Shown here: positions 1,965-30,888 of the stretch, in pieces
Position numbering within the stretch: position 1 is the first letter of the stretch
Layout: each line of letters begins with the position of its first letter
Made by a program: the position numbers and the translations under genes
Notes under the pieces: model-generated
Told to the model about the DNA's origin: nothing
The model's database searches: none
The model's input: only the letters and a program-made list of their open reading frames with translations
Assembly (NCBI GenBank): GCA_965221905.1
Contig: OZ244922.1
Location: forward strand, 2,148,845 to 2,212,844
Length of the DNA stretch: 64,000 nt
Reading direction: 5' to 3'
Source of the DNA: Chloroflexota bacterium
Lineage (GTDB): Bacteria > Chloroflexota > UBA11872 > VXOZ01

Positions 1965-3134
1965 CTACCAGGGCAGCACACGCAACCGCTCCCGCGCGGG
2001 AACCCGGAAGACAGGCGGCATAGCGTAGGTCTTCACACGGCTGTGTACGGCAATGCTCTGCAGCAAACCAATGCCAATGAAGGTAGCAACCAGAGCGCTA
2101 CCGCCGTACGAAAGGAATGGCAAGGGTATTCCGGTTACGGGCAAGAGCCCGATGATCATTCCAACGTTTACGAAGGTCTGCAAGAATATCAGCGCCGCCA
2201 CGCCAACTGCAATATTCTGTCCAAAGTGATCGCGGGCGCTTGTAGCAATCATCGTAGCGCGAATGAGCAGCACCGCAAACAGCGTCAGCACAAGCGCGCT
2301 GCCGATAAAACCTAGCTCCTCGGCCAAAACGGCAAAGACAAAGTCCTTGTGTTGCACGCGCAAATACTCGAGCTGTGTTTGCGATCCCTGAAATAGCCCT
2401 CGGCCCCAAAGCTCTCCTGCGCCAACGCTGATTTGCGCCTGGAGCACGTTGTAACCAGCACCGAAGGGGTCGGCCGTCGGATCAAGAAAGGTGGTAACGC
2501 GTTCCCACATGTAGTCTTTAATTCTTATGAGCTGTAAGAAGACAGCGGCTAACAAGCCGATTGCCACACCAATCAAGTACCGGAAGGGCACGCCGGCCAT
2601 GAAGACCATCACCCCCCAGATTCCAAGGAACATAAGCGTCGTGCCGAGATCCGGCTCTCTATAGACCAAGAACGCCGGCACGGCGGTGATAATCATGGAT
2701 CCAAAGAAGCAACGTATATCCTCCGCCCGTTGCGACCCGGCGCTAAAGTAATGCGCTAGTACCACAATCAGAGCTATCTTTGCGAATTCAGAGGGTTGCA
2801 ATGAGAAGGGGCCAATCAAGAACCACCGCTGCGAGCCCCCGATAGATACCCCGGCATAGAGCACCGCAAAGAGCAAGAGCACAGATCCTCCGTAGCCAAT
2901 CCAGGCCAAGCTACCCAGCCAACGGTAGTTCAGCTTAGGGGAAACGGCAAGAATTACAATGCCAATGCCGAGGAACACACTTTGTTTGATGACGTCGATA
3001 GACGTCCCGGAATCGAGGAGCGTTGCACTGCGAATGAGGATTATACCGATAGTCGCAAGAAGCAGAGCTGCGGCCGTGAGCCAGTAGTCGTAGAGCTTCC
3101 ACTTTCGTATTGCAATCATGCTATAGCTTAGCAC
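1965..3134 (-). CDS. rodA: Rod shape-determining protein RodA (SEDS family)
   Basis: Polytopic membrane protein of the FtsW/RodA family. It overlaps the 3' end of mrdA by 14 nt and is the last gene of the mre operon. Confidence 0.85.
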   Translation of the reverse strand: MLSYSMIAIRKWKLYDYWLTAAALLLATIGIILIRSATLLDSGTSIDVIKQSVFLGIGIVILAVSPKLNYRWLGSLAWIGYGGSVLLLFAVLYAGVSIGGSQRWFLIGPFSLQPSEFAKIALIVVLAHYFSAGSQRAEDIRCFFGSMIITAVPAFLVYREPDLGTTLMFLGIWGVMVFMAGVPFRYLIGVAIGLLAAVFLQLIRIKDYMWERVTTFLDPTADPFGAGYNVLQAQISVGAGELWGRGLFQGSQTQLEYLRVQHKDFVFAVLAEELGFIGSALVLTLFAVLLIRATMIATSARDHFGQNIAVGVAALIFLQTFVNVGMIIGLLPVTGIPLPFLSYGGSALVATFIGIGLLQSIAVHSRVKTYAMPPVFRVPARERLRVLPW

Positions 3135-4977
3135 TCCTAGCAGACTCGAAATAGAAGCGGGTCATCTTATCGGCAATCGGGGCTGCAAATTCGGAACCCT
3201 CACCGGCATCGTAGAGCACCACGGCAAAGGCGATCTCGGGTTCATCGAATGGCGCAAACCCGTTAAACAAGGCGTGTGTCGGCAGGAAACCATTCTCATC
3301 ACGAGGGCCGGGGAATTCTGCCGTACCGGTCTTACCGGCTATTCCAAACGGGTTCGCTGCTATCCGGATCGCAGTACCGCGCACCACCACATCGCGCATT
3401 GCGTTTCGGATAACTGCAAGCACCTCTGCGGAGAATGGCAATTGGCGAGCCACTTGCGGTTCGATTGGCTGCCCTTGCGTGCCGTCAGCGCCCCGTATCT
3501 CAGCAGCAATCCTAGGGTACATCAATTTCCCGCCATTTGCAATAGCCGCGGAAAAGTTGGCAAGCTGCAACGGAGTTGATAAGACATCACCTTGCCCAAT
3601 GGCTGTGTTGTATGAGTCGCCTTGGAACCAAGGCTCCTTTTTGATACGCTGCTTCCGTTCAGGTGTTGGAATGAGACCATCCTGTTCACCGGGCAGATCA
3701 ATGCCGGAAATCTGACCAAAGCCGCTTGAAGTCGCGGCCCGAGCAAGCGCTTCCGGCCCGATGCCCTCAAAACCCGTATGGGGATTGCCGCCAACCAGGT
3801 TATAGAAGCACACATCGCAAGAATTGACCAAACCTTCGTAAACATTCAAGAGTCCGTGTCCGCTGCGCTTCCAGCACCCAAACTCCCACCCTCCTGCAAG
3901 GATCAGGCTGCCTCGACACTCAAACTGTGTTTCCAAGTCCATACCATGATTCTCAAGCCACTCAGCAAGGCTTACAAGCTTGAACGTTGAGGCCGGCGGA
4001 TAGAGCCCGCCAATAGCATGGTTGACCAGAGGTCGCGACGGATCGTTGGCTAGTCGCGCATAATCCTCCTCAGAAATAGATTGGGCGAAGAGATTGTTAT
4101 CGAAGCCAGGCAGGCTAACCAGGGCACGAACCGCTCCTGTGGCTACGTCTAGCGCTACAACGGCGCCGGAGGGCGCTCCTGAATCCGAAAGTCCGTCTTG
4201 GAGCATTTGCGTAACCGCAGCCTGGAGATCCAAGTCCAAACCCAACACAAGGTTGTTACCGGGTTGGGATGGCGTCTCATGGAGAACACGGATGGTTCTC
4301 CCATATGCGTTGACCTCCACGTTTCTCTGACCTTTTTTCCCGTGGAGCTCTGCCTCATAGATGGACTCGATGCCTGCAATGCCAACTTGGTCATCGCGTT
4401 CGTAGCCTCGGTTCAGATAGAATTCAGTTCGCTCATGGGGGATAGGGCCCACGTACCCTAAAATGTGACCGTTGCTAACTCCTGCCGAATACTCGCGAAT
4501 AGGGCGGCTTTCCGCGGAAATACCCGGCAGGTTTGCGTTCTCTTCCTCTATGATCATGGCAACGTGACGCGGCACGTCCCGCTTCAAGATGGTCGGTTGA
4601 TAGGGACTCTGCAGGCCCTCAGTCATAAGTTCCATTATGGTTGGCGCAGGCTTCTCCAGCAGTGCTGAGAGTCGGCGGGATACGTTCTCGATCTCGTCTC
4701 GCGGCAAATCGATCATGCGAGCTACAACGCTGAAATTGGGCACATTTATGGCTACCCTTTGTTCATGTCGATCGTACACAACGCCGCGCAGCGGCTTGAC
4801 GGAAAGCACTCGCAGGCTGTTGTTCTCCGCTTGGTTGCGGAGCTCAGGACCGCGAACGATCTGGATGTACCAAAGCCGAACTACGAGTGCAAGAAACGAA
4901 AGGAGCAATACGATTCGCAGCAGGTAGAAGCGAATTACTTCGCGTCGGGTCAGCCTACGCTTCTCCTCAGCCATCAT
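3121..4977 (-). CDS. mrdA: Penicillin-binding protein 2 (peptidoglycan D,D-transpeptidase)
   Basis: N-terminal membrane anchor, a PBP dimerisation region, and transpeptidase motifs STFK, SCD and KTGTA. Sits between mreD and rodA. Confidence 0.85.
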   Translation of the reverse strand: MMAEEKRRLTRREVIRFYLLRIVLLLSFLALVVRLWYIQIVRGPELRNQAENNSLRVLSVKPLRGVVYDRHEQRVAINVPNFSVVARMIDLPRDEIENVSRRLSALLEKPAPTIMELMTEGLQSPYQPTILKRDVPRHVAMIIEEENANLPGISAESRPIREYSAGVSNGHILGYVGPIPHERTEFYLNRGYERDDQVGIAGIESIYEAELHGKKGQRNVEVNAYGRTIRVLHETPSQPGNNLVLGLDLDLQAAVTQMLQDGLSDSGAPSGAVVALDVATGAVRALVSLPGFDNNLFAQSISEEDYARLANDPSRPLVNHAIGGLYPPASTFKLVSLAEWLENHGMDLETQFECRGSLILAGGWEFGCWKRSGHGLLNVYEGLVNSCDVCFYNLVGGNPHTGFEGIGPEALARAATSSGFGQISGIDLPGEQDGLIPTPERKQRIKKEPWFQGDSYNTAIGQGDVLSTPLQLANFSAAIANGGKLMYPRIAAEIRGADGTQGQPIEPQVARQLPFSAEVLAVIRNAMRDVVVRGTAIRIAANPFGIAGKTGTAEFPGPRDENGFLPTHALFNGFAPFDEPEIAFAVVLYDAGEGSEFAAPIADKMTRFYFESARSAKL

Positions 4978-5068
4978 CTCCTCCTGGAGACTTCAGCACC
5001 GCATGGCGACGACTGCGCCGCTTGTCGACCTCTTCGCCACCTGGCGACCTCTTCGTCGCTTGGCAACA

Positions 5069-5584
5069 TTAGCGTCTCCTGGCACTTGAGCTTCCCGAGG
5101 TCACCTCGAGGAGGCGAAATCCTGCCAGCACTATGAGTGGCGCGAAGGCCGCATTCATTAGTGCCGTCGGCAATGCCATTTGCAGGAGCATATCGCCAAA
5201 CGAAAACCGATAGTCGAACGTGATGAGCAAAGCGCCTAAGAGAACGAAATAAACGAGGGCTACCCAAAGAGACGTTACTGCCGCCACTACTATCCGGTTC
5301 GGCTGCACGATGCTTACAGCAAACCCTCCCACAAAGCCCGCCACCGTAAGTGCTAGGGCGCTTAGACCCCAATGGGCATCAGAGAAAGCATCGATTAGTA
5401 ATCCGCCTACAAAGCCCCAGCCCGCGCCGCCCGCCGGCCCATACCAAAGCGCCAACAGCGTAACGACTTGCAGCATAGGCAACCATACGATGCCGAATAG
5501 CGGAAAGTGCCACACCACGCTAGCCTGCACCAAGGCAGCCATCATCATCACGATCACTATGGCGGGGCGGGAGACGTCGTTCAT
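5069..5584 (-). CDS. mreD: Rod shape-determining protein MreD
   Basis: 171-aa multi-pass hydrophobic protein placed directly after mreC with a 4-nt overlap. Confidence 0.7.
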   Translation of the reverse strand: MNDVSRPAIVIVMMMAALVQASVVWHFPLFGIVWLPMLQVVTLLALWYGPAGGAGWGFVGGLLIDAFSDAHWGLSALALTVAGFVGGFAVSIVQPNRIVVAAVTSLWVALVYFVLLGALLITFDYRFSFGDMLLQMALPTALMNAAFAPLIVLAGFRLLEVTSGSSSARRR

Positions 5585-11454: not shown

Positions 11455-13314
11455 ATGCATCGGTTTGCGCACATGCCGAGGGCTTCCTGTCGGTTGACAG
11501 ACGGCTTCAACCAAATCTACCATAACAGTTACAGCGACACCGCATGCAAGCTATTCCTCACGTTCATAATCAAGTGCATGTCTCAGATTGCGGAATCCTC
11601 CTCTACGCTCATAGCAGACGTCGGTACCTTCAGCACGCGTATCTCTCTCCTAGAGCGCGTTGAAGGGGACTTTCGGCTCGCTGGCGCTGCGCATGTGCCT
11701 AGCACGATCGATCCTCCGATATCCGATGCGATGCTCGGCGTTTCGCGCGCTCTTGCGGAACTGGAGCGCACCACAGGATGGTCCGCCGGACAAGAATCCG
11801 TCACCAAGCTCGCAGTCACCAGCGTAGGGCTTACCGTTGTTACCAGTGTGCTGAGCTTGGGCGACAGCCGCACCTTGAATGCGATGCTCGAAACTCTGCA
11901 AGCATCGCCCATTACGCCTATAGACATCTTCGACCTCCATAATCGACCGCCCGATGCCTATCAGTTCGTGTACCAGCGACTCATAGATTCGCCGCTCGAT
12001 GCGCTCATCATCCTCGGCAGCGATGCCGAGCAAGGTTGGGAGATAGAAATTGCACGGATTGGCGAAATCATTCGGAACGTGCTCGGCGCGCATCGCAACG
12101 CATGGAACGCAACCGTAGTCTTTGTTGGTTCCACGGCTCACGCACAGTTCCTGCGAACTTTTCTTGGCGAGCGGGCAATGCTTCATCACATGGAATTGGA
12201 CCCGGGCCAATCAGAGAGCGCCACCCTTGCCTCTCTCGAAGTCCTTGTGCAGTCGCTCGCCAAAGAGAGACGCCGGCTTCGGTTGCCGAATTATACAGGA
12301 TTTGCCGAGTGGGCAGAGACTGATCCAATTGACTATCAGGAAGCCCTGGGCAGTGTCACCCAGCAGCTAGCACAGCGCTACAGCATTCACGTTCTCTCCT
12401 TGGATCTTGGAGCAAGCCACGTTGCTGCGGTTTCGAGCCTACCGAATGGGGATTTGCGCAGAGTATCTCTGGATGGTTTCGGCACCCTGCGCAGTCCGCA
12501 GAATATCCTGATCGAATCCGGTCGCGAGGCCGTTGAGCGCTGGCTGCCGTACGATCTGGATGAAGACCGGCTAGATAGCTTTCTCTTGCACCGGCTTGCA
12601 CATCCCGCCGCTCTGCCGACGACGGTCGAGAGCCTTGTCTTGGAGCACGCCTTTGCGCGGGAAGCCATTCGCAGCGTGGTTGAGCTCATAGACGATCAAA
12701 CAGTAGACGGGCAGAGAACTGCGCCCTGTGCTACCGCGGATGTGGTAATTGGCTGTGGCGCAACACTGGGCGGCGCACCGCGGCTGATACAGGCAGTAAT
12801 GATGATGCTTGACTCCGTACAGCCCACCGGCTTTACGCAATTTGCCCTAGATCGAGCGGGCTCGCTACCGCTACTGCTGCTCGACAAAGCGATTGAAGAA
12901 GGAAATCCCTTTATCGAGCAGGATGTACTCTTGAGTCTCGGCGTTAGCATATCTCCGACGGGCCGCATGACCGAAAATCGCCCGGCCTTGAGTCTGCGCG
13001 TTGGCATTCCTTCTCGTTCTCCTGAGGAGTTTCAACTAAATTTTGGGGCCATGGAGGTTATTCCATGGGAGGGCGGCGCCGGCTCCAAGCTAGAAGTGTG
13101 GCCCGCTACACGGCTCGACCTTGGTGTAGGGCGGGGTCGGGGAGCCGAGCCACGTGCCAACCTCTATGGCGGCGCACTGGGGCTCATTGTTGACGCGCGC
13201 GGGCGCCCTCTCGAGCTTGATGCCAGCAAGGACAAGCGACAGGCTAAGACCCTTGAGTGGATGCAGACGACGGGGTCGTATCCCACATTGTCTTTCTCTG
13301 GGAGATCGAGCTAG
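11455..13314 (+). CDS. Hypothetical protein with actin-like/ASKHA-type ATPase motifs
   Basis: Three motifs match the ASKHA pattern: phosphate-1-like LIADVGTFSTR, phosphate-2-like LSLDLGASHVAAV and adenosine-like VVIGCGATLGGAP. A GGAGA ribosome-binding site lies upstream of ATG 11455. No confident family assignment. Confidence 0.35.
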   Translation: MHRFAHMPRASCRLTDGFNQIYHNSYSDTACKLFLTFIIKCMSQIAESSSTLIADVGTFSTRISLLERVEGDFRLAGAAHVPSTIDPPISDAMLGVSRALAELERTTGWSAGQESVTKLAVTSVGLTVVTSVLSLGDSRTLNAMLETLQASPITPIDIFDLHNRPPDAYQFVYQRLIDSPLDALIILGSDAEQGWEIEIARIGEIIRNVLGAHRNAWNATVVFVGSTAHAQFLRTFLGERAMLHHMELDPGQSESATLASLEVLVQSLAKERRRLRLPNYTGFAEWAETDPIDYQEALGSVTQQLAQRYSIHVLSLDLGASHVAAVSSLPNGDLRRVSLDGFGTLRSPQNILIESGREAVERWLPYDLDEDRLDSFLLHRLAHPAALPTTVESLVLEHAFAREAIRSVVELIDDQTVDGQRTAPCATADVVIGCGATLGGAPRLIQAVMMMLDSVQPTGFTQFALDRAGSLPLLLLDKAIEEGNPFIEQDVLLSLGVSISPTGRMTENRPALSLRVGIPSRSPEEFQLNFGAMEVIPWEGGAGSKLEVWPATRLDLGVGRGRGAEPRANLYGGALGLIVDARGRPLELDASKDKRQAKTLEWMQTTGSYPTLSFSGRSS

Positions 13315-13316
13315 CT

Positions 13317-14405
13317 ATGGCAACCATGCTTGCGCTGCGCGGCACGGCGAACCCACCGACGCCGACCCCACAGATTGGTCGTTATCTCTTGCGGTTACGT
13401 CGGGTTCTGCCAGCCGACGGCGAAATCTCCGTGCAACCCGGGGATAAAGTAGAGCCACACACCGTAGTTGGCGCTTGTTCCATAACCCCACAGCGATCTG
13501 TGATCGACTTGGCAAGCATGCTGGGTGTCTCTCCTGAGGACGTAGAAAAATCGCTCGAAGTTGCTCCTGGCGAGCGCTGCTCGGAAGGCGCGCTGATTGC
13601 CGCCCGGCGCCGCTTGCTGGGACTGCGCACACGTACAGCAATTGCCCCATTCAGCGGTCATATCGGCGCGGTCTCTTCACGTAGCGGTCTTGCTTGGTTC
13701 GAAGGCGAAAGCCGTGAGGTCCGTTTGCCTGCCGGGCTCTACGGTACCGTCATTGACGTTGTACCGCCGCGCGAGGTTGTCATAGAAGCGGACGCGGTAG
13801 TTGTGCGCGGCGTGTACGCTGTTGGAGGGGAAGCGTCCGGCAATCTAACCACGGTCCTTTCCCAAGGGTCCAATAGCGAAGAGCGGCTCATTCTTGTATC
13901 CCGCGAGCCGGCTACCGTTGAAGTTATGCGGCGCGCCGCCCAACTTGAAGCCGCCGCTGTGGTGGCCCCGTCCGCTGCACGCAAGGACATGGCCGTGCTC
14001 GGCATGGACCCGCTGGCCCGCCCGACGTCGCATGGGTGGAAAGGCCCGCCGCTCCTACTGACGGAAGGTTTCGGCGAGCACCCCATGACGGACACGCTCT
14101 GGGAACTCCTTACCGCCCAGCCGGTGCCATGGGCAACTGTGGTTGCTCGACCCGACCTGCACGTCTTCCTGCTGATTCTGCCAATTCGTTCGCTCGCGCC
14201 GAAAGACGCCTGGACGCGCTTCGGCCCCGGCTCTCGGCTCAAGCGCGCCGGCAAGTCGGTGGAACCGGGAGAGGTGCGTTTGGACGCCTTCATGCCGTTC
14301 CCACTGGCTGTCCCCTCCGGTCTGCGGCTCCCCGCCGCAGAGACCATCGATGCCGATGAACGCCGCAGCCGCGTGCCCCTTTCAGAACTGGAGTGGCTGA
14401 TGTAG
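13317..14405 (+). CDS. Hypothetical protein, translationally coupled to the preceding gene
   Basis: ATG 13317 follows the upstream stop by 2 nt and has a GGGAGA ribosome-binding site. No recognisable motifs and no TM helices. The in-frame extension to 13257 is unlikely. Confidence 0.4.
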   Translation: MATMLALRGTANPPTPTPQIGRYLLRLRRVLPADGEISVQPGDKVEPHTVVGACSITPQRSVIDLASMLGVSPEDVEKSLEVAPGERCSEGALIAARRRLLGLRTRTAIAPFSGHIGAVSSRSGLAWFEGESREVRLPAGLYGTVIDVVPPREVVIEADAVVVRGVYAVGGEASGNLTTVLSQGSNSEERLILVSREPATVEVMRRAAQLEAAAVVAPSAARKDMAVLGMDPLARPTSHGWKGPPLLLTEGFGEHPMTDTLWELLTAQPVPWATVVARPDLHVFLLILPIRSLAPKDAWTRFGPGSRLKRAGKSVEPGEVRLDAFMPFPLAVPSGLRLPAAETIDADERRSRVPLSELEWLM

Positions 14406-14539: not shown

Positions 14540-14660
14540 CTTTGCAGTTATAACACATATCTGTTATAGTAACGTATATCTGTACTATATCTATAGATGC
14601 TATTAGGCAGTAGCTCTGTATTACTTCAATTAAGTTGACATGCAAGATCGGCAGAACAGT
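14540..14660 (+). promoter_or_regulatory. AT-rich island with direct repeats upstream of the lamin-tail-domain gene; putative promoter/operator region
   Basis: A low-GC stretch in a high-GC genome: ATATCTGTTATAGTAACGTATATCTGTACTATATCTATAGAT carries ATATCTGT/ATATCTAT repeats, and TTGACA sits at about 14636. Confidence 0.3.
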
Positions 14661-14815: not shown

Positions 14816-17800
14816 GTGGCAAGCCGAAGTCACCTATATTCCTTGGTCCGATTCTGCCTGGCTGCCATGCTTGCTTGGCTCGCATCCGTTCAGGCCACAC
14901 GCGCGGACGGCTCCGTCGTCATCAACGAAATCTCACCGGGCGACGTCGCTGGAACGTCCAGTTGGATTGAGCTGCACAATACTAGCGACTCTGAGACCGC
15001 TGAAATGGGCTTTTGGCGGCTTGACGCTGAGAGTGAATCTGCCGAGAACTCCCACTACATCTCACTCGACGCTGCCATTCCTCCGGGCGGATACCTCGTA
15101 TTTGAGCGCACCACGACGCAGCTGACAATTGCCCGAAGCGGCACTATTCGCCTCTTGGATCTCGACGAGACTGTAGTGGATCAGACCGACTATACGGTTA
15201 CTGAAGGCGGTGTAGCAATTGCACGGATTCCGGATGGCTCGTCTAACTGGGTGGTTGTTTCAAAATCGACTAAGGGATCATCGAACGCAGTTTCTACACC
15301 AACACCGACCCCGACACCCACACCATCGCCTACGCCGTTGCCTACGCCGTTGCCTACACCCACTCAAACGCCTACACCGACCCCAACACCCACACCATTG
15401 CCAACACCCATACCATCTCCTACGCCCACACCTACACCGTCGCCTACGCCGACCCCGACACCGTCGCCCACACCCACACCATCGCCAACACCCATACCAT
15501 CTCCTACGCCGACCCCGACACTGTCGCCTACACCCACACCATCTCCTACGCCGACCCCGACACTGTCGCCTACACCCACACCATCGCCAACATCCATACC
15601 ATTACCTACACCGTCGCCAACGTCCACACCATCACCTACACCTACACCATCGCCAACGCCTACACCTACGCCGTTGCCTACTCCAACCCCTACGCCAACA
15701 CCCACACCGACACCAATGCCGCTTCCCACACCCAACAGTTCAATCGTCATCAACGAAATCTTTTCTCTGCATGCCAGGCAGGTCCAAGCCGAAGCTCTTC
15801 TCAACCGCGGTCTTGCCCGATTTGCTTTCAATTCAATTGGGAAGCAAGTCAATGAATCACAGGGCTGGGTCGAGTTCTATAACAATGGATCTTCTACCGT
15901 GGACGTGAGCCAATGGTTCCTGGATATCGGTGAAGACACCGGCGACAGGCCTTACCAAATTCCGATCGGCACCAAAATCGCACCTGGCGCATTCTTGGTC
16001 TTTAAGGAAGCAACGACTATATTTCGCATATTTCAGCGGGGCAGAATTCGTCTCCTTGATCTCTACGGCACAATTGTCGATGAGCACGACTATGACACCA
16101 ATGGGGCCACGGGAATTGCGCGAATGCCGGATGGTGCGGATAGCTGGGTAGTCGCATCGGCGCCGACTAAGGGAGAGCCAAACATTGTGCCATCCCCCAC
16201 TCCATCGCCAACACCAACCCCGACACCCTTGCCGACACCGAGGCCTGCCCCCAAGCCGCCCCCACCCACTCCGTCGCCACATCCGACACCGCCTCTGCCG
16301 CTGTCGCTTCGCATAACGGAGGTCTACTACGATGGGCAAGTCTCTCGGACAGAGGGCGATGAATTCATCGAGATCCAGAACCAAGGTACTGCCTTGGCGC
16401 ATCTGGCTCAAGTGCGCGTCTTGGTGAAGAGCGAGCAGGCCGATAGTCCCGTTGTTTACGGCTTCTACGCCGACAATGTGCTCTCGCCGGGAGACATCTT
16501 TGTTATTGCAAAGAATGCCCGTCAATTCGAGGAGCAATTCGGCTTTCGCCCAAGTTTTGAAGCCCGTTTCTCGGGAACCGGCTATGAAGATACGGAAAAC
16601 GTGCGCAACATGCTCCATGAGCGTGAATCGTCGCGGCGCACGTGGGCATTGGCCAATACAGGCGCTGTTGTAGCCTTGATCGGCGATCACGGTACGGTCA
16701 TCGATGCCGTAGCTTACGGCCATGATCCCGGCGGGTACCTTGGTCTACAGGGCGACTATCCATCCGCGTCCGGCGGTCAGTCACTCCTGCGTGTGTCTAC
16801 TGTGGGCGTGAGCGGACGCATGCCATCGGCCTTACGGGCAGATACACCTTCACCGGGCATCGTCCCGCCATCTCCCACCCCTACTCTTCCCACTCCCACA
16901 CCGATACCTTTGCCTTTACCGACGCCGAGGCCTGCCCCCAAGCCGCCCCCGCCCACTCCGTCGCCACACCCGACACCGCCTCTGCCGCAGTCTCTGCGCA
17001 TAACGGAAATCTACTACGATGGGCAGGTCCCTCGGACAGAGGGTGATGAGTTCATCGAGATCCAGAACCAAGGTACGACTTTAGCGTACCTGGCTCGAGT
17101 GCGCGTTTTGGTGAAGAGCGGGCAAGCCGATAGTCCCGTTGTTTACGGCTTCTACGCCGACAATGTGCTCTCGCCGGGAGACATCTTTGTTATTGCAAAG
17201 AATGCCCGTCAATTCGAGGAAAAATTCGGCTTTCGACCGAGTTTTGAAGCCCGTTTTTCGGGAACCGGCTATGAAGATACGGAAAACGTGCGAAACATGC
17301 TCCATGAGCGGGATACGTCGCGGCGCACGTGGGCATTGGCCAATACGGGCGCCGTAGTGGCCTTGATCGGCGATCACGGTACGGTCATCGATGCCGTTGC
17401 TTACGGCCATGATCCCGGCGGGTACTTTGGTCTACAGGGCGACTATCCATCCGCGTCCGGCGGTCAATCACTCCTGCGTGTGTCTACCGTGGGCGTGAGC
17501 GGGCGCATGCCGTCGGCTTTACGCGCAGATACACCTTCACCGGGCATCGTCCCGCCATCTCCCACCCCTACTCTTCCCCCGCCCACACCGATACCCTTGC
17601 CTTTACCGACGCCCATTACGCCCACGCCTTCACCGACGCCTTCGCCAACACCGACGCCAGTTCCCCCTTCGCCTACTCCGACGCCTTTGCCTACTTCGAC
17701 GCCTTCGCCAACACCGGCGCCTATTCCTCCCACACCATCACCGACGCCTTCGCCAACGCCCATTCCTCCCACTCCAACGGCAACAGTCCTGCAGTGCCTG

Positions 17801-18445
17801 ACAGAATTTCCGAGTCAGGAGCCGACGCGGCTGGTGCGCGTGGTTGGCACTGTGACGGAGATCCGTGAAATGCCGCAAGAAATTCGCGTCTACCTTGCCG
17901 ACGATTGCGGTGGCGCCGTTTTGCATTTGGCGGTAGATGCTTCGGCTCCTCCGGTCGGCAGCCAAATCCGGGTTACTGCCCTAGGCTCACTAAGGAATTT
18001 GCAGATCGATCTCTATGTTGCGCCTGAAACCAGACTTGAGTTCCTGCCGGGGACGTCTCAACCACAGGCAATCCCCTTCATGCAGGCAATGCTCCAACGT
18101 GCGCTAACCGGGACGCGGGTTCGGTCGGCGGGCAACATCACGCAAACTACTGACATCACAGTGGATGAGATCTATGATTCTGTTGCCAGCTATGTCAGGC
18201 TTGACCCTCACGCGCAAGCAGTCCCAATTGGCCCTGTGGTTTTCTACGGCATCCTTGAATGGCGCGAAACGGTGCCATTGCTCCGCGTACACTACGTCGT
18301 TCCCGCGAAAGCACGCATATCTACGCTCTGGGAGAGTTTTCAGGACTGGCGAGTGACACGCATCGCCGCGCAGTACGTGCGTGACACCGTCAACGCTCTA
18401 ATCATGCGATCACTTACCCGCGGCAGAAGCACCTCTTTGCCATGA
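14816..18445 (+). CDS. Secreted multi-domain protein: four lamin-tail domains, Pro/Thr-rich linkers and a C-terminal OB-fold-like region
   Basis: Signal-peptide-like N-terminus ending VQA. Lamin-tail-domain signatures recur four times ([10 protein letters not shown]...[14 protein letters not shown]...WVEFYNNG, and twice LRITE[VI]YYDGQ...[11 protein letters not shown]). Long (P-[TS])n linkers separate them. The tail [10 protein letters not shown]...[11 protein letters not shown] looks like an OB fold. The start is GTG; alternative starts are possible. Confidence 0.7.
15290..15735 (+). repeat. Low-complexity Pro/Thr/Ser codon repeats (CCN-ACN units) encoding linker 1 of the lamin-tail-domain protein
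   Basis: About 150 aa of (P-T/S)n. The complementary strand gives spurious Gly/Val/Asp-rich ORFs. Confidence 0.8.
16225..17612 (+). repeat. In-frame tandem duplication, period 687 bp, about 2.05 copies at about 95% identity
   Basis: AGGCCTGCCCCCAAGCCGCC occurs at 16241 and again at 16928. The encoded 229-aa units (lamin-tail domain plus flanking PT linker) differ at only about 10 residues. Confidence 0.85.
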
Positions 18446-21462: not shown

Positions 21463-21828
21463 CTATTGCGCCCGGATGATCTTGCCATCCGGGTCAAGTT
21501 CCACTATTCGAAATGCCCTACCCGCGCGATAAGACTGGCATTGATTCTCGGGCACATCGTCCACCGGCTGACGCGGCGTATGCACGATGTCGGCTACCCA
21601 CCCATCCATCAGGTTTTCCGTGAGGCAAGGGCCGGCGGAAAAGTCTACCCCATCCGCCTTCTTCTGCGCGTAAAGCGCTTGAGCAAGGACAATGGCGCGC
21701 TCACGCTCTTCTACTAAGTCCTCACCCGAGCTTGCAAGACGCACCAGCACAAAGACAAAAAGCAATACGAGCGCAAACGCAATGATAAGTGGCAGTATGC
21801 GGTAACGAAAAACGTCACTTACCCGCAT
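21463..21828 (-). CDS. Small membrane-anchored hypothetical protein
   Basis: One N-terminal TM helix. Overlaps the sulfatase gene's 3' end by 14 nt, so probably co-transcribed. Confidence 0.4.
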   Translation of the reverse strand: MRVSDVFRYRILPLIIAFALVLLFVFVLVRLASSGEDLVEERERAIVLAQALYAQKKADGVDFSAGPCLTENLMDGWVADIVHTPRQPVDDVPENQCQSYRAGRAFRIVELDPDGKIIRAQ

Positions 21829-23371
21829 CGGACCCGCCCACGAATTGGTAGTTCTTCAGTTGTTCGCGCTGCCGCCCGTCAACGGGGTAATGCTCGGTCC
21901 ATTGCGCAAATTGCCAGCCCCTGCCCACGGTTTCCTTATTCTCCACTTCGTCGAGGCGCAACCAGGCGTGGGTTGGCTGGGGATACAGCGCCCATTCATC
22001 ACCGTCCAGCGGATCTGAGTAGCAGGCGGCTTGGAAATGCGCGAACAGTGCATCTATGAGCGTCTGCTTCACGTCAGAAAGCCCTGGTTCGTGGGCATAG
22101 TTCACGAGTTCGTTGCCGCCATCGCGGTAGTTGAGCAAAATCTCCATGCGGTCCGGGGCGCTGTAGATGTATTTCCACTCTTCATTCATCGCGCAGTACA
22201 TGCCTAGTTGCTTCTCTCTGATCTGACCGAAGAGATAGGGTCTGTCAAACGCTCCACCATCGCGGGCCGCGGTCAGGAGCGACTCGCCGTCGCATTCAGG
22301 CTGCCGGTGTTCCACGCCCGCGGCGGAAAGCATAGTCGGCGCGACGTCCTGCAAACCCACCAAATGCTCCCGTACTACGCCTTCCGGCAGCGTGCCCGGC
22401 CACGAAAGAATGTACGGAATGTGACACGCCGGCTCGTGATAGTTGCGCTTGCCGAATGCATGGTGATCGCCAAGAAACTCGCCATGGTCGGCCACGAACA
22501 TGATCAAGGTGTTTTCCCGCTGTTTGGAGGCATCCAACGCTGCAAGAATCTCGCCGACCCAGCTATCAACGAACGAAACGCACGAATAATAATATGCCTT
22601 CATTGTGCGCAGCAAGTTATCATCCGGAAAGAGATCCATCCACTTGCTGCGATTCTGATTCCGCTGATACCACGTGTGCCACCCGATCTCGGCTTCACTC
22701 CGCACCGGTAGGGGCATGTCGGTGCTGCGGTATAGTCTATGCCAGGGCGACGGAGGGTCGAACGGAGGATGCGGCTTTATGAATGAGGTCCAACAGAAGA
22801 ACGGCGCATTCTCATGAGCACGCTCTTCAATAAAGTCAACGGTTCGTTGTGCCGTCCAGGCTGTCGTATGCAGGCGCTCGGGTAACTGTGAAACCTGCGG
22901 AATGTAATAGAGTTCGTGCCTAATGCCGTGCGGTTCTTCCACGTGGCCGTATCCGGCTGCCAACACGTGCTGCAGGAACTCGTCATTTTCCACACTGCGG
23001 GGGACTTCCTCGCTCAGCCACATGCGATCGAAGCCGTGGTGCTCACGTACGGGAGAAAAGTGCATTTTGCCGATGGCCTGCGTAAAGTACCCCGCCGCAC
23101 GCAGCCGCGTCATCAACGTGGGGTGATCTGCGGGAAGCGGGTAGCCGTTGTCAAAGATGCCCGTGCGCAGAGGAAGCTGTCCCGTCATGCAAATCGCACG
23201 TGCCGAGACGCAGACCGGCGATTCTGTGTAGCCGGAGGCGAAGCGCACGCCCTCCGCGCAAAGACGGTCGAGATTTGGAGTTTGGATCAACTCATTGCCG
23301 GCAGCGTGCAGCGCGTCAAATCGCAACTGGTCGCACATAATTAGGAGCAAATTCGGTTGAGCGCGGCGCAT
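21815..23371 (-). CDS. Sulfatase-family (alkaline phosphatase superfamily) hydrolase with non-canonical C-V-S-A-R active-site motif
   Basis: N-terminal LLLIMCDQLRFDAL metal-site region. The signature region reads SPVCVSARAICMTGQ where C-x-P-x-R is expected. Confidence 0.7.
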   Translation of the reverse strand: MRRAQPNLLLIMCDQLRFDALHAAGNELIQTPNLDRLCAEGVRFASGYTESPVCVSARAICMTGQLPLRTGIFDNGYPLPADHPTLMTRLRAAGYFTQAIGKMHFSPVREHHGFDRMWLSEEVPRSVENDEFLQHVLAAGYGHVEEPHGIRHELYYIPQVSQLPERLHTTAWTAQRTVDFIEERAHENAPFFCWTSFIKPHPPFDPPSPWHRLYRSTDMPLPVRSEAEIGWHTWYQRNQNRSKWMDLFPDDNLLRTMKAYYYSCVSFVDSWVGEILAALDASKQRENTLIMFVADHGEFLGDHHAFGKRNYHEPACHIPYILSWPGTLPEGVVREHLVGLQDVAPTMLSAAGVEHRQPECDGESLLTAARDGGAFDRPYLFGQIREKQLGMYCAMNEEWKYIYSAPDRMEILLNYRDGGNELVNYAHEPGLSDVKQTLIDALFAHFQAACYSDPLDGDEWALYPQPTHAWLRLDEVENKETVGRGWQFAQWTEHYPVDGRQREQLKNYQFVGGSDAGK

Positions 23372-23994: not shown

Positions 23995-24534
23995 ATGACC
24001 TCTCGTGCCATGCGTCTGACGATAGGTGCTCTTGTTGTCGTTATAGGGCTCCTAGTCATTGGAGGTGTAGCATGGGTGAGCCTGGCCGCTGAAGGCCCGG
24101 AGCAGCCCATTGCCTTTATGCACACAGTGCATGTCGAGCAAAACGACATTGACTGCGTTTTTTGTCACCGTAATGTGGAAACCGGCGCCGAGGCAACAAT
24201 TCCAGCCGTTGAACAATGCATGCTTTGTCACAGTGTCATAAATGGCGAAAACCCGAAGGTAACCAACCCCTTGCATATAGCGGAGATTGCTAAGCTGCAA
24301 GCTAACTGGGAGAACAGAGAGCCCATCGATTGGGTGCGTGTTCACGTATTGCCGGACCACGTGCGTTTCGTGCACGCATCCCATATCAAAGCAGGATTTG
24401 AGTGCGCTACGTGCCATGGTGACATCGGCTCGATGGAACGTGTTAAGCAGGTCCGCTCGCTCAACATGGGCGACTGTTTGGGCTGCCATCGGGAAAACAA
24501 CGCGCCGACCGACTGCACGATCTGTCACCGTTAG
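23995..24534 (+). CDS. actA: Pentaheme cytochrome c, ActA-like subunit of an alternative complex III
   Basis: N-terminal TM anchor and five CxxCH motifs: CVFCH, CMLCH, CATCH, CLGCH, CTICH. Confidence 0.75.
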   Translation: MTSRAMRLTIGALVVVIGLLVIGGVAWVSLAAEGPEQPIAFMHTVHVEQNDIDCVFCHRNVETGAEATIPAVEQCMLCHSVINGENPKVTNPLHIAEIAKLQANWENREPIDWVRVHVLPDHVRFVHASHIKAGFECATCHGDIGSMERVKQVRSLNMGDCLGCHRENNAPTDCTICHR

Positions 24535-24540
24535 AGGAGA

Positions 24541-26799
24541 ATGATGCGACGACGTGACGTCCTGAAATTAGCCGGCACTTCAGGCTTGGGTATGAGTGCT
24601 GTGGCCTTCGCGGGCTGCGGTACGCCGGATCGTGAATTCCACATTCAGAGTCCGGTGGAAATACCGGAAGATACGGTGACGGGTCTCGATACGTGGTATG
24701 CGAGCATTTGCCAAGATTCCGGCGATGGCTGCGGCATTATCGTGCGGGTCAAGAGCGGCCGCGCACGCAAGATTGAAGGCAATCCCGACTATCCCCTCAA
24801 CCGCGGCAAGAGTTCCGCCAAGGCGCAAGCGGCCCTGCAAACGCTGTACAATCCCGATCGTATTCCCAACCCGATGGTCCCGAGACGCAGTCGAGGCTCC
24901 GGTCAATATCGGTTCATGCGTTGGGAGGAAGTGCTGCCGGAGTTCCAGGAAAAGCTTGGCGCTGCCCAAGAGGGCGGCATAGTCATGATTACAGAGCCCG
25001 TCAACGGGCACATGGGTATGATCCTCGAACGGTTTACCCAGAGTATCGGCGCGCGCTGGCTGACGTACGAGCCACTTGAGCAGGCTGCGGTACGACAGGC
25101 CAGCCAGCAGGTGTTTGGGACCACGCGTGTGCCGCAGTTCGATATTGCGAATTCCGCTTACTTGCTTTCCATCGGCGGCAACTTTCTGGAAGGCGGCGAT
25201 GCGCCGGTGCACTACGGCCAAGCCTACGGCAATTTCCGACAAGGAGCGGGCCGTTCTCGGGGCACGTTTGCGCATTTCGATACGCACCTAACGATGACAG
25301 CGGCCAATGCCGACGAATGGCATCCCGTGAACCCCGGCACTGAGGGCATTCTGGCGCTGAGCATTGCGCACGCCGTATTGGATGGCAACGCGGTGCCCGC
25401 CGCGCTCCAACCTCTGACCGGTGGCGAGGGTAATCTGGATGCATATGCGGCCGAAAAAGTCGCTGCAGCAATCGGCGTGCCGGCTGAGGTTATTACGAGG
25501 GTTGCCCATGACTTTGCCGCGGCGCCGACCGCGGTAGCAATGGGCGGCGGCAGCGCTGCCGGCCATACAAACGGGGTCTTCAACATGGCCGCCGTCTTCG
25601 CACTCAATTTGCTGAAAGGCAACGTGGGACAAAGTGGCGGCGTGCTGCTGAATGCCCCGTCGCCCCTGCCGGATATACCCGCTGAAGCGCCAGTGACCTC
25701 GTTCCAAGAGTGGGAGACGTTTCTCAGCGAAATAGACGGCGGCAACGTACCGCAAGTGCTCTTGATACATGGCGCCAATCCCGTGTTTGGCCTTCCTGGG
25801 GTCCTGAACGCGGCCAATTTGCTGGATCGGATACCCTACATCGTCAGCTTTTCGAATGTATTAGACGAGACTACGGCATTGGCAGACTTGATCTTGCCGG
25901 ATCACCATTACCTGGAAAGTTGGGGCACAAGCGTGCCCCCGTTAGGCGCTGAGTATTCCACTCTAGGAATTCAGCAACCGGTTATCCGCCCGTACCACCA
26001 AGAGTTCGAAGGGGAAGCCGGTACGCGTGCCTTCGGCGACGTGCTGCTCGGTTTGGCACAGTTCTTTGGCGGAACAATGGCCGAAGCACTGCCATGGGAA
26101 TCGATGAGAGATGCTATTCGCGCCAGTGCTGATGTCCTTCAAGCCCGAGGCGACGGCTCAGTGACAAGCGATGATCCGGAAGTTTTCTGGCTGTCGGTAT
26201 TGCAACGCGGCGGCTGGTGGGTGCCGTCTGAAAGTGTGTCGGCAGACGCACCGGACCTGACCGGCTTGTCCGTGACAGAAGCGGATTTCAGTAGTGCTGA
26301 CCAAGAGTATCCGTATCATCTCATCGTTACTCCATCAGTATTGCTAGGGGAAGGCAGCGGCAGTCTGGCTGCGTCACCGTGGCTGCAATCAACCAGTGAC
26401 CCCATGACAACAGGTGTCTGGGGAACATGGATTGCCCTTAGCCCAAAGACCATGGAAGCATTGGGCATTCTGGAAAACGACATCGTGCGCATTACGTCGG
26501 TGGCAGGCTCACTAATGGCTCCCGCGTACCCCTATCCTGGAATAGGCGAGGGCGTGGTGAACGTGCCGCTCGGCCAAGGGCACAAGGAGCTTGGGCGGTA
26601 TGCCGAGAACCGTGGGGATAACCCACTGCGTATTTTGGCGCCGGTCATCCAGGAGCAAACCGGGGCTCTAGCCTGGTCGGCTACACGGGTTCGGATCGCG
26701 CCAACAGGACGGCGGACCCGTCTGGCGCGTATCGAGGGTATCACCGCGCCGGTGCAGATGCCCGATGAGCAGACGTTCCAAATCACGAACGAGAGCTAA
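24541..26799 (+). CDS. actB: Molybdopterin-oxidoreductase-like subunit (ActB1-like), Tat-exported
   Basis: Twin-arginine signal MMRRRDVLKLAGTSGLG...AFAGC and MopB-superfamily length and pattern. Confidence 0.7.
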   Translation: MMRRRDVLKLAGTSGLGMSAVAFAGCGTPDREFHIQSPVEIPEDTVTGLDTWYASICQDSGDGCGIIVRVKSGRARKIEGNPDYPLNRGKSSAKAQAALQTLYNPDRIPNPMVPRRSRGSGQYRFMRWEEVLPEFQEKLGAAQEGGIVMITEPVNGHMGMILERFTQSIGARWLTYEPLEQAAVRQASQQVFGTTRVPQFDIANSAYLLSIGGNFLEGGDAPVHYGQAYGNFRQGAGRSRGTFAHFDTHLTMTAANADEWHPVNPGTEGILALSIAHAVLDGNAVPAALQPLTGGEGNLDAYAAEKVAAAIGVPAEVITRVAHDFAAAPTAVAMGGGSAAGHTNGVFNMAAVFALNLLKGNVGQSGGVLLNAPSPLPDIPAEAPVTSFQEWETFLSEIDGGNVPQVLLIHGANPVFGLPGVLNAANLLDRIPYIVSFSNVLDETTALADLILPDHHYLESWGTSVPPLGAEYSTLGIQQPVIRPYHQEFEGEAGTRAFGDVLLGLAQFFGGTMAEALPWESMRDAIRASADVLQARGDGSVTSDDPEVFWLSVLQRGGWWVPSESVSADAPDLTGLSVTEADFSSADQEYPYHLIVTPSVLLGEGSGSLAASPWLQSTSDPMTTGVWGTWIALSPKTMEALGILENDIVRITSVAGSLMAPAYPYPGIGEGVVNVPLGQGHKELGRYAENRGDNPLRILAPVIQEQTGALAWSATRVRIAPTGRRTRLARIEGITAPVQMPDEQTFQITNES

Positions 26800-26820
26800 C
26801 TTCAGCGGGGAGAAACGGCG

Positions 26821-27624
26821 TTGAGACAAGGTGCAGAAGGACAAGAACAAGACACAAGCAAGCCGGTGACAAGCATTGGCCGACGCTGGGGTATGGTGGT
26901 GGACCTAGACCGCTGCACCGGCTGCCAGGCTTGCGTTGTCGCCTGCCATGCCGAGAACAATATCGCATTAAACCTTGAAGACATTGTGCTCCAGCAGCGA
27001 GCGATGAACTGGATTCGCATCGAGCGCTATTGGGAAGGGGAATACCCCAATGTCAAAGCGCGTTTTCTGCCCATGTTCTGTCAGCATTGCAACAACGCTC
27101 CCTGCGAGCCCGTGTGTCCTGTATACGCGACGTACCATAACCAAGAGGGTCTGAACGTTCAGGTTTACAACCGTTGCATTGGCACGCGCTATTGCGCTAA
27201 CAACTGCCCCTACCATGCGCGGTTCTTCAATTTCTGGGAACGCGATCTCGAAGAAGAGCAAAGAGAGTATCTCAATCCCAACGTTACCGTTCGCACCAAG
27301 GGCATCATGGAAAAGTGCACCTTCTGTGTGCAGCGCATCCGCAAGAGCGAATGGGAGCGTCGGCAAGCAGATGAACAATTGCAGGATGGGGACGTAACGC
27401 CGGCATGCGTGCAAGCTTGCCCGACCGGTACGCTAGTATTCGGCAATCTGGAAGATGAAGAGTCTCAAGTATCTCAATTAGCAGAGAACAAGCGACACTA
27501 CCGCGTACTGGAAAACCTTGGCACTGATACCAATGTGATCTACTTGAAGAAGGTTGATCCGCATGCAAGCGAGACAGCACCACACGCTGGAACCGCTGCC
27601 AACACCGGCAGAAATAGCGCGTGA
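26821..27624 (+). CDS. 4Fe-4S ferredoxin-type iron-sulfur subunit (ActB2-like, NrfC/PsrB family)
   Basis: Multiple Cys clusters: CTGCQACVVAC, CQHCNNAPCEPVCP, CIGTRYCANNCP, CTFCVQR...CVQACP. Confidence 0.75.
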   Translation: MRQGAEGQEQDTSKPVTSIGRRWGMVVDLDRCTGCQACVVACHAENNIALNLEDIVLQQRAMNWIRIERYWEGEYPNVKARFLPMFCQHCNNAPCEPVCPVYATYHNQEGLNVQVYNRCIGTRYCANNCPYHARFFNFWERDLEEEQREYLNPNVTVRTKGIMEKCTFCVQRIRKSEWERRQADEQLQDGDVTPACVQACPTGTLVFGNLEDEESQVSQLAENKRHYRVLENLGTDTNVIYLKKVDPHASETAPHAGTAANTGRNSA

Positions 27625-28933
27625 CACATTTAGTCGGGCGTTAGGGAGCAGTGGTGCGTACCGCGTCACGTTGCTCGTCCTTTTCCTGCTCTTTGTTGGC
27701 GGGGTAGCCGGCTTTGCCATGCGGCTCAGCGCCGGCATGGAGGACCGCGGGCCGTGGGGCTACTACGCGGCTGTTTTCGGGTTCCTCTTCACGGTTGGGC
27801 AGGCAGCGCCCATGGTGGCGTTCGTGCCGCGTCTTGCCCGTGCGCGCTGGCATGGGCCGCTCGTACGCGCAGCGCAAGTGGTGGCGGTAGCGGGACTGCT
27901 AAATGTGCTGCTCTTCATACCGCTGCTGTGGCTGGTGCCTTCTAGTGCAGTGCGGACCACGGTGTGGTTCGACTGGCCGTGGGGCGCGCCGCATTTCTTC
28001 GATACGATCTTCGTTCTCATGCTTGTGATGAATGGGTTTGCGTTTCTCTGGGTACAGGCAATGCCGGACCTCGCGTCTCTGCGCGTGCAGAGCGGGGGCA
28101 CCCACCGTTTGGCGCGGCTGCTTTCGGGGTCGTTCATTGGTACGCCCAAGCAGTGGAAAGTGCAACGCATTGCCTTAGCTGTGTTGGGCGGCTGCTATGT
28201 GATGAACTTCATATTCGTGCAATCTCTGATCAGTCTTGACTACGTGATGACACTCGTGCCGGGGTGGAAGAGCTCAATGTTCCCGGCCTTCTACAGCATC
28301 AACGGATTGCTCGCCGCCACGGCGATGACGATCGTCGTAATGGCGGTCATTCGACGGTTTTATGGACTGCAACGGTACATCACTGTTGACCAGTTTTGGA
28401 ACGTGGCAAAGATCATGTTTGCGCTCAATTTGGCCTGGGCCTATCACTGGTGGTCGGACTTTCTCACAACCTGGTACGGTCGCATACCGCGGGAGACCGT
28501 CGTCACGATCGGTACGCGGAGCTTTGGAGAGAACACTGGGCTATTCGCCATTGCATTTATTAGTTGCTTCTTGTTGCCGCTGCTGATTTTGATGTGGAAC
28601 CCTTGGCGCAAGAGCGTTGCCGGCCCAACGATTGTGGCGAGCCTTTCACTCTTTGGCATCTTCATTCAACGCATAATCGACTATGTGCCCGCATATCTCT
28701 CGACCCAGGACCCACTGGACCACGAGTTGCACGAGGCAATTGCAATCCCTTGGCCCGGTTTGCCGGACGTCCTTATCATCGTCGGTGGGTTGGCAGGAGC
28801 CATATTCCTCGTGACATGGGCAGTGAAGGCTCTAGGGCCGCTCTCGAACTGGGAAATGCAGGAGGGCGTACTTCTGCGCCGCAATGAGAAATTCTTGAAT
28901 ACTGAGGTGCCGTATGTCATCAAGCCACAGTAG
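27563..28933 (+). CDS. actC: NrfD/PsrC-family integral membrane quinol-interacting subunit (ActC-like)
   Basis: About 10 TM helices, NrfD-like. ATG 27563 (or TTG 27554) overlaps the upstream gene by about 60 nt. Confidence 0.7.
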   Translation: MQARQHHTLEPLPTPAEIARDTFSRALGSSGAYRVTLLVLFLLFVGGVAGFAMRLSAGMEDRGPWGYYAAVFGFLFTVGQAAPMVAFVPRLARARWHGPLVRAAQVVAVAGLLNVLLFIPLLWLVPSSAVRTTVWFDWPWGAPHFFDTIFVLMLVMNGFAFLWVQAMPDLASLRVQSGGTHRLARLLSGSFIGTPKQWKVQRIALAVLGGCYVMNFIFVQSLISLDYVMTLVPGWKSSMFPAFYSINGLLAATAMTIVVMAVIRRFYGLQRYITVDQFWNVAKIMFALNLAWAYHWWSDFLTTWYGRIPRETVVTIGTRSFGENTGLFAIAFISCFLLPLLILMWNPWRKSVAGPTIVASLSLFGIFIQRIIDYVPAYLSTQDPLDHELHEAIAIPWPGLPDVLIIVGGLAGAIFLVTWAVKALGPLSNWEMQEGVLLRRNEKFLNTEVPYVIKPQ

Positions 28934-28992
28934 GAAATCCTGCTCGCTGCAACTACTGTCTTTCGTGCGGGCGATGAAGGAGATTAATCCCA

Positions 28993-30360: not shown

Positions 30361-30370
30361 GGAGGCAACC

Positions 30371-30883: not shown

Positions 30884-30888
30884 CCCGA

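Follow-up and report, generated by a model that had tools for sequence, protein, structure and literature searches.

A secreted multi-lamin-tail protein with a predicted tandem OB tail and no recognised nuclease domain in a Chloroflexota bacterium

What do lamin-tail domains (LTDs) and OB folds bind when several copies of them stand in one secreted protein without a hydrolase? This question is raised by a gene in a 64,000-nt stretch of a Chloroflexota bacterium (contig OZ244922.1 of assembly GCA_965221905.1, positions 2,148,845 to 2,212,844), hereafter called the window. LTDs are widespread in secreted prokaryotic proteins, and a protein that combines LTDs and OB folds in several copies without a hydrolase is a clean system in which to ask what these modules bind alone. 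An initial annotation placed a giant secreted protein with four LTDs, Pro/Thr linkers and an OB-fold-like tail at 14816-18445 on the plus strand. The open reading frame (ORF) lies exactly there in the ORF list of the window and encodes 1209 amino acids (aa) from a GTG start, and the word giant overstates a mature protein of about 125 kDa. The protein is laid out as a signal peptide, two short and two long Ig-like LTDs on Pro/Thr spacers, and a C-terminal tail that is predicted to consist of an OB fold, an OB-like barrel and a helix. We tentatively favour the reading that it is a Sec-exported, non-enzymatic, modular and multivalent binder at the cell surface or in the matrix, whose ligand is perhaps an anionic polymer, with extracellular DNA (eDNA) as the leading candidate.

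Lamin-tail domains, tail and export signal

The LTD profile PF00932 matches the whole protein in four stretches with 135.2 bits, and each of the four domains is also above the Pfam gathering cutoff of 34.3 when it is scored alone (Table 1), so that the protein is a bona fide LTD-containing protein and the domain count of the initial annotation holds. LTD1 and LTD2 share 42-45% identity, and LTD2 carries an N-terminal insertion of roughly 30 aa. The long type represented by LTD3 and LTD4 spans about 180 aa and is the best-conserved module among the orthologues described below, with 79 of 190 alignment columns invariant. A sequence-profile search of the PDB with the long LTD gave chance-level matches only (plant HMA domains, E about 0.05). 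The LTDs of the window protein contain no Cys.

LTD3 and LTD4 stem from an in-frame tandem duplication of a linker and a long LTD. The two copies align with blastn over 675 nt without gaps and are 93.0% identical, with 47 substitutions. Because they differ at 7% of the aligned positions, the duplication cannot be put down to an assembly that collapsed or expanded a repeat. With a dS of 0.24 and a dN/dS of 0.11 between them, both copies are kept under purifying selection. The duplication is found only in the window, and the long LTD is single-copy at every other locus.

Four Pro/Thr linkers, as had been described, separate the folded modules and sum to 335 aa, or 28% of the protein. Their DNA consists of degenerate tandem repeats with a strong C over G skew. 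In linker 1 the repeats are 12-102 nt long, and the version of this linker at locus L002 is about 126 nt shorter. Two antisense ORFs overlap the gene on the minus strand, at 15364-15852 (162 aa, with GVGVGV-type repeats) and 15857-16723 (288 aa). They are rejected as genes and regarded as by-products of the Pro/Thr-coding repeat composition.

No catalytic family is detected in the whole protein at E<=1 in Pfam or NCBIfam, and Pfam detects no endonuclease/exonuclease/phosphatase (EEP) domain at this threshold. The hits of the NCBIfam scan were noise, the best of them (E=0.089) scoring 12.5 bits where the cutoff is 80, and included no nuclease model. The absence of a nuclease domain, which the initial annotation had pointed out, is thus borne out. 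Either of two findings would have contradicted that annotation, namely LTDs without profile support or a known catalytic domain in the C-terminal region; Pfam supports the LTDs, and the C-terminal region has no match to a known catalytic domain. The exact protein of the window is absent from a collection of 15 billion proteins.

The tail (about 220 aa, aa 989-1209) has no Pfam match at E<=10, and an alignment of nine tails likewise matches no Pfam family, OB families included, at that threshold. A sequence-profile search of the PDB matched no solved structure. A first AlphaFold2 (AF2) model of the tail, built from four near-identical sequences, had a pLDDT of 39 and was unusable. After divergent tails from an exhaustive HMMER search had been added, the resulting alignment (A2) served as the basis of a second model with a pLDDT of 80.2 and a pTM of 0.69. 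In this model the first barrel has five strands (pLDDT 85-94). The second barrel, at aa ~1101-1163, has lower confidence, with strands at model residues 113-122, 139-141, 151-162 and 165-175 and a low-confidence loop at residues 123-150. A long C-terminal helix follows at aa ~1171-1200 (model residues 183-212, pLDDT 55-74).

Foldseek matches the tail model best to tandem-OB DNA binders, namely Teb1 AB, the HIN domains of AIM2, IFI16 and p202, RPA70 A/B and Pot1, in alignments of 190-212 columns with E about 2e-5 and 7-24% identity. A search of a viral fold library with the tail again gave OB proteins. The whole-tail TM-scores are only about 0.3, because the two barrels differ in orientation. 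The predicted model has the five-stranded closed beta-barrel, superposable on known OB folds, that defines the OB fold, and the tail is therefore predicted to be an OB barrel, an OB-like barrel and a helix, an assignment at the level of fold only. The OB-fold-like segment of the initial annotation is supported by this prediction, and the roughly 150 aa that it had left as sequence of no known kind appear in the model as the second OB-like barrel and the C-terminal helix. Origin of the two barrels by internal duplication cannot be shown, as their comparison by BLASTP is not significant (E=0.43).

The best-conserved motif of the tail is FYGI(L/I)EW...LRVHYV, in which F1143, W1149, R1157 and H1159 are invariant; the conserved residues of the tail further include R1008, R1017 and H1037. 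The two invariant Cys residues of the first OB fold, C994 and C1031, are consistent with an extracellular disulfide. Most orthologous tails are basic (pI 9.3-11.0). The C-terminal 45 aa are basic in all family members, with a pI of 11.6 in the window protein and 9.8-11.9 in the orthologues.

The signal peptide was assigned heuristically, by sequence inspection and hydropathy (maximum KD12 of 2.12). Its cleavage region reads VQA/TRA, and the orthologues share the layout, ending in ...A(A/T)RADG. With this heuristic call, the order of a signal peptide followed by an LTD is that of the ExeM/NucH type. In the window protein and six orthologues, scans by regular expression and hydropathy gave no lipobox, LPXTG or PEP-CTERM signal. 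The last 45 aa of the window protein contain no GG motif and thus no GlyGly-CTERM, and its mature part has no transmembrane (TM) segment (maximum KD19 of 1.26; maximum KD15 of 0.77 in the last 45 aa). From the layout of the signal peptide and these scans, the protein is judged to be Sec-exported and to carry no recognised anchor signal.

Table 1. Positions of the gene, its protein modules and its promoter-like site in the window
Feature	Coordinates	Strand	Remarks
Promoter-like site TTTGCA, 18 nt, TG-TATAGT	14541..14570	+	Consensus scan; sigma-70-like, putative function
Complete multi-LTD/tandem-OB secreted-protein gene	14816..18445	+	Stop 18443-18445; GTG start kept in syntenic loci
Sec-type signal peptide, aa 1-30	14816..14905	+	Basic n-region, hydrophobic core, small-residue cleavage region
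LTD1, short, aa 31-160	14906..15295	+	PF00932 36.6 bits alone; pI 4.17; dN/dS 0.28 vs L006
Pro/Thr(Ser) linker 1, aa 161-306	15296..15733	+	P/T/S 76-100% per 25-aa block
LTD2, short, aa 307-458	15734..16189	+	PF00932 34.4 bits alone, marginal vs cutoff 34.3
Pro-rich linker 2, aa 459-495	16190..16300	+	Composition; 3' part inside duplicated unit
In-frame tandem duplication, linker + long LTD	16226..17587	+	Unit 687 nt: 16226-16900, 16913-17587
LTD3, long, copy A, aa 496-676	16301..16843	+	PF00932 41.3 bits alone
Pro-rich linker 3, aa 677-723	16844..16984	+	Composition
LTD4, long, copy B, aa 724-904	16985..17527	+	PF00932 39.1 bits alone; 94% aa identity to LTD3
Pro/Thr linker 4, aa 905-988	17528..17779	+	Composition; homology with contig L001 begins within, at 17753
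Tail, predicted OB fold 1, aa 989-1078	17780..18049	+	Strands aa ~1005-1068; C994 and C1031 invariant
Tail, predicted short helix and second OB-like barrel, aa 1079-1165	18050..18310	+	AF2 and Foldseek
Tail, predicted basic C-terminal helix, aa 1166-1209	18311..18442	+	AF2 helix; end motif RSLTRGR..LP

Relatives, variation and genomic setting

The exhaustive HMMER search with the tail profile, over 1.84 billion cluster representatives, found eight proteins. When one genome of each GTDB species was scanned, six loci emerged, and all of them belong to Chloroflexota metagenome-assembled genomes (MAGs), three of which are deposited as chromosomes. Word-indexed searches that started from the tail, LTD3 or a seven-sequence long-LTD profile each gave only four to five fragmentary close relatives and no outgroup architecture. 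Members of the family thus came only from a handful of Chloroflexota MAGs with shared synteny and from related contigs of metagenomes, and by these searches both the tail and the long LTD appear to be confined to the lineage. The partial orthologue MYB76167.1 bears the NCBI name 'lamin tail domain-containing protein'. One of the MAGs (L007) belongs to the SB06xx sample series, whose bins include sponge-specific Entoporibacteria (PMC7883664). A sponge-microbiome origin is likely for the lineage, a statement that concerns the relatives and not the window itself.

Intact orthologues of 982-1055 aa are present at five loci (L006 and L008-L011), and the copy at L007 ends with its contig. All of the intact proteins have a signal peptide, two or three short LTDs, exactly one long LTD, a Pro/Thr linker and the tail. 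Pfam finds three to four LTDs in each of the five and no other family at E<=0.01. The proteins P0010, P0011 and P0013 have the same architecture, with no EEP or other catalytic family in Pfam at E<=0.1. Every full-length match stops at the tail, so that no member of the tail family has a catalytic domain downstream of it. Homologues carrying an EEP domain, which the initial annotation had proposed to look for, number zero among the members of the tail and long-LTD families.

The module count varies among the loci: besides the duplicated long LTD of the window, a third short LTD occurs at L008 and L010. The linkers of the intact orthologues total 247-351 aa. The extra short LTDs of the L008, L010 and L011 orthologues have a Cys just upstream of the domain (for example in PECPSN, LQCSTD and PPECSRD) and a second one in an internal TCW motif, which suggests one disulfide per extra domain.

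Across the MAGs, the flanking proteins are 74-97% identical and the tails 44-61%, and the LTD gene changes three to five times faster than its neighbours. Between the window and L006, dN/dS is 0.08-0.18 for the neighbours, 0.49 for the tail and 0.09-0.19 for the LTDs other than LTD1. In the comparisons of L007 with L008 and of L010 with L011, the neighbours have values of 0.04-0.17 (0.26 for orf121), the tail 0.33-0.42 and the long LTD 0.30-0.33. The ratio is below 1 in every module in all three genome pairs. Together with the intact orthologues, these values indicate that the gene is functional, under constraint that is markedly weaker than that of its neighbours or partly diversifying.

Several loci carry a disrupted gene. 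On the 15x contig L004, from a related strain, most of it has given way to DprA and an Eco47II-type restriction-modification (R-M) pair; what is left is a single long LTD (2578-3081) and 41 aa from the C-terminus of the tail (4982-5104). The region 1389-5104 of this contig encodes the Eco47II-type restriction enzyme, an N6/N4 methyltransferase and DprA, and the locus behaves as an insertion hotspot. At L002, L003 and L005, which by their names are long-read contigs of 3-8x coverage, the gene is frameshifted into two or three ORFs. These splits are attributed to consensus errors, since neighbouring genes are split too. The 4x long-read contig L001 encodes the tail alone (3409-4128), preceded by about 15 Pro/Thr linker residues and beside UvrD-like helicase fragments. 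Its homology to the window starts within the last Pro/Thr linker, and the junction reflects either a genuine rearrangement or an assembly that is chimeric at the low-complexity repeat.

The window represents core chromosome, with genes for MreB/MreC, PBP2, RodA, GltX, ThrRS, DnaN and TsaD. Synteny extends upstream over a 619-aa ORF similar to PF13941 and a 382-aa ORF, and downstream over two Amidohydro_2 genes, AP_endonuc_2 and a sulfatase. In the window, the two upstream ORFs occupy 11455-14405 and overlap by 58 nt. The first has a weak match to PF13941 ('MutL', 35.8 bits) and the second has no Pfam match. The pair adjoins the LTD gene upstream in L002, L003, L006, L008, L009 and L010, and at L011 about 5 kb of other genes lie in between. 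The LTD gene itself is monocistronic and its downstream neighbour is convergent. It has no operon partners: the genes around it serve core metabolism and cell shape, and its left flank is not the same at all loci. No dedicated secretion genes are linked to it.

A multivalent binder and its alternatives

In the reading that we favour, the protein would act as a multivalent binder and not as an enzyme. The initial annotation had proposed a cell-surface scaffold that may bind DNA or matrix, an idea that is plausible by analogy of fold. The tail would bind an anionic polymer, with eDNA as the first candidate, and the LTD array would supply extra contacts or reach. The Pro/Thr spacers between them are likely extended and possibly glycosylated. 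The ligand is proposed because LTDs and two OB folds make up the non-catalytic half of the ExeM, Xds and NucH nucleases, and because LTDs stand beside metallo-beta-lactamase (MBL) or thermonuclease domains in haloarchaeal eDNA proteins (PMC5118699). The OB and C-terminal-helix unit of the tail looks most like the RPA32/RPA14 and Stn1/Ten1 modules. These modules associate via their C-terminal helices, and by analogy the tail may oligomerise through its own helix, which would raise the valency. A surface-exposed accessory role would fit the variable number of LTDs, the variable linker length and the fast evolution of the gene.

Several observations weigh against this reading. OB folds bind proteins and sugars too, and RPA14 and Ten1, which are among the best-matching OB folds, mainly mediate protein-protein contacts. 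The tail of the window protein is charge-neutral (pI 7.0), its first OB fold is acidic (pI 4.75) and so are all of the LTDs (pI 4.2-5.4), a charge pattern that speaks against most of the protein binding DNA non-specifically. The OB call comes from one predicted model, in which the second barrel and the helix are moderately confident, and no sequence-level link joins the tail to any OB family in Pfam or to any solved structure. The gene is also dispensable, as it is disrupted in L004. Neither the window nor the syntenic loci hold a linked nuclease, competence or DNA-uptake gene.

A possible though doubtful alternative is an envelope-tethered adhesin that does not have DNA as its ligand. The OB/basic-helix tail would hold the protein non-covalently on its own cell, at a wall polymer, the S-layer or the membrane surface. 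The last Pro/Thr linker would span the wall as a stalk, and the LTDs, facing outward, would bind host (sponge) matrix, particles or other cells. The series of domains, Pro/Thr stalk and C-terminal module mirrors that of Gram-positive wall-anchored adhesins. The constancy of the long LTD and the tail core, while the number of LTDs and the linker length vary, would suit an adhesin, as would the fast evolution that is typical of exposed surface proteins and the strongly basic last 45 aa in all orthologues, given that the scans found no other anchor signal. The relatives come from sponge-type metagenomes (SB06xx bins, L007; PMC7883664). However, few modules evolve as fast as the tail (dN/dS 0.33-0.49), and such a rate would not be expected of a part that anchors to a conserved polymer of the cell itself. 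The fold neighbours of the tail are all OB folds of the nucleic-acid type, with no carbohydrate-binding ones among them.

A bolder version of the binder, which we consider unlikely, sees in the tail the first of a class of extracellular, RPA-like tandem-OB modules that bind DNA, and in the protein a nuclease-free eDNA cross-linker or 'DNA fishing line'. Extracellular DNA, DNA-coated particles or phage would then be held off the cell on Pro/Thr stalks of at least 100 nm, with the valency tuned by LTD duplication and by oligomerisation of the C-terminal helix.

It is less plausible still that the protein is one half of a split nuclease or phosphatase, a two-polypeptide ExeM in which the LTD-OB protein recruits DNA or a phosphorylated polymer for a separate secreted hydrolase. 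Its domains match the N-terminal half of ExeM (PMC6085458), fusions of LTDs to hydrolases from several superfamilies recur (PMC6085458, PMC5118699), and further along the window there are genes for hydrolases of the secreted type, a sulfatase (21815-23371) and a type I phosphodiesterase (60052-61950). However, no hydrolase gene is adjacent to this monocistronic gene or co-oriented with it, and the left flank differs by locus, as seen with the other genes at L011 and the DprA and R-M genes at L004.

A cryptic enzyme, with an unrecognised catalytic site in the tail or the long LTD, is very improbable. The tail belongs to no described family and has invariant H1037, H1159, E1148, D1029 and R1157, yet it is modelled as a plain OB barrel, and the alignments to its top structural neighbours never run through a catalytic domain; moreover, the signal peptide, LTDs, linkers and OB tail account for the entire sequence. 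That the gene is decaying or is a functionless assembly artefact of low-complexity repeats is hardly credible: the gene is split into two or three ORFs at L002, L003 and L005, mostly replaced at L004 and reduced to the tail beside a UvrD-like gene at L001, but the broken contigs are of low coverage with split flanking genes, the window ORF is uninterrupted over 3.6 kb, five MAG-locus orthologues are intact (three of these loci deposited as chromosomes), the long-LTD copies have diverged, and dN/dS is below 1 in every module of the three genome pairs, so that this reading is largely refuted.

The meaning of the favoured binder would depend on its ligand. If this is DNA, an uncultivated Chloroflexota lineage, probably associated with sponges, would have in it a structural protein that binds eDNA, and OB folds would here serve outside the cell in matrix building and not in catalysis. 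If it is something other than DNA, the tail would represent a new module for anchoring or oligomerisation at the C-terminus. In either case the impact is local and not general, as the family is very small and restricted to its lineage.

Upstream region and comparison with known systems

The 410-nt intergenic region 5' of the gene has a GC content of 0.44-0.46, compared with about 0.58-0.60, and is richer in AT than the genes. The promoter-like site in this region overlaps a 10+10-nt palindrome, TATAACACAT/ATCTGTTATA, at 14549-14568. The TATAGT/TATACT core and part of the palindrome are kept in L005, L006 and L009, and the rest of the 410 nt diverges. Two families of direct repeats, of 14 nt and 10 nt, are present in two copies each. 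The initial annotation had noted an AT-rich island with direct repeats and taken it as a sign of dedicated regulation. The AT-richness holds, but the repeats are short, two-copy and kept in close strains only, and they are rejected as such a sign. Since Rfam has no match to the 5' leader, a riboswitch or a special regulatory island was given up as an explanation too. By its sequence, the region resembles an ordinary promoter, perhaps with an operator. At L009 the intergenic region upstream of the orthologue is expanded to 1.2 kb, with CCATGTCATACCGGGTGCAGCCAC, a unit of 24 nt, repeated in tandem about eight times at 5059-5261; this repeat is absent from the window.

Elsewhere in the window, three tandem paralogous ORFs of 785, 754 and 777 aa lie at 51446-58906, each with a C-terminal glucose/sorbosone dehydrogenase domain (PF07995) and an N-terminal 430-460 aa that have no Pfam match at 1e-5. 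The cluster at 23995-31452 encodes a cytochrome c7/c3-like protein, a molybdopterin oxidoreductase, a 4Fe-4S protein and an NrfD-like membrane protein, a layout that resembles alternative complex III.

Among known systems, the comparison with ExeM that the initial annotation drew is apt. ExeM consists of a signal peptide, an LTD, a YhcR-like region with two putative OB folds, an EEP domain and a C-terminal anchor; its OB region is essential for activity, and its LTD contributes and is partly dispensable (PMC6085458). The likeness to the ExeM/Xds/NucH proteins (Shewanella ExeM, Vibrio Xds) lies in the signal peptide, the N-terminal LTD and perhaps, by predicted fold, a two-OB region. Those extracellular proteins handle a polymer and carry an EEP domain, whereas the window protein has none. 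It also lacks the GlyGly-CTERM or TM anchor found in the Shewanella and Vibrio members, and it has four LTDs instead of one, long Pro/Thr linkers and its OB tail at the C-terminus. As a possible counterpart of the YhcR-like region, the tail is a predicted tandem OB by fold, and in sequence it shows no link to the YhcR-type OB families, none of the nine tails matching a Pfam OB family at E<=10. The protein therefore lies outside the ExeM/NucH family, as it has no EEP domain, no match to a family profile and no C-terminal anchor. By analogy, it may work like the binding half of ExeM.

The haloarchaeal eDNA-linked proteins Hvo_1477 (thermonuclease-LTD) and ComA/Hlac_1867 (MBL-LTD) likewise have an LTD in an extracellular protein, and they are implicated in eDNA metabolism or biofilm (PMC5118699). 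They carry a nuclease or MBL domain, and the window protein has neither. Multi-LTD tandem repeats are recorded in bacterial and archaeal secreted proteins by Mans et al. 2004, as cited in PMC6085458. Generic LTD proteins resemble the window protein in being secreted and in sometimes having PF00932 repeated, but in this family the LTD array is always coupled to the orphan tandem-OB tail. The searchable literature holds no description of a nuclease-less LTD and OB architecture, and both terms occur together only in the ExeM paper.

The OB modules of RPA32/RPA14, Stn1/Ten1, Teb1, RPA70 A/B and the HIN-200 proteins are intracellular and eukaryotic or archaeal, unlike the exported window protein, and the likeness of the predicted tail to them is one of fold, with no demonstrable homology or shared ligand. 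The Pro/Thr-stalked, wall-anchored adhesins of Gram-positive bacteria resemble the window protein in layout, with a signal peptide, Ig-like binding domains at the N-terminus and long spacers rich in Pro/Thr. In place of their LPXTG, TM and basic-tail sorting signal, the C-terminus of the window protein consists of the predicted OB/helix module. Compared with all of these systems, the modules of the protein are known, and their arrangement and the orphan tail are new.

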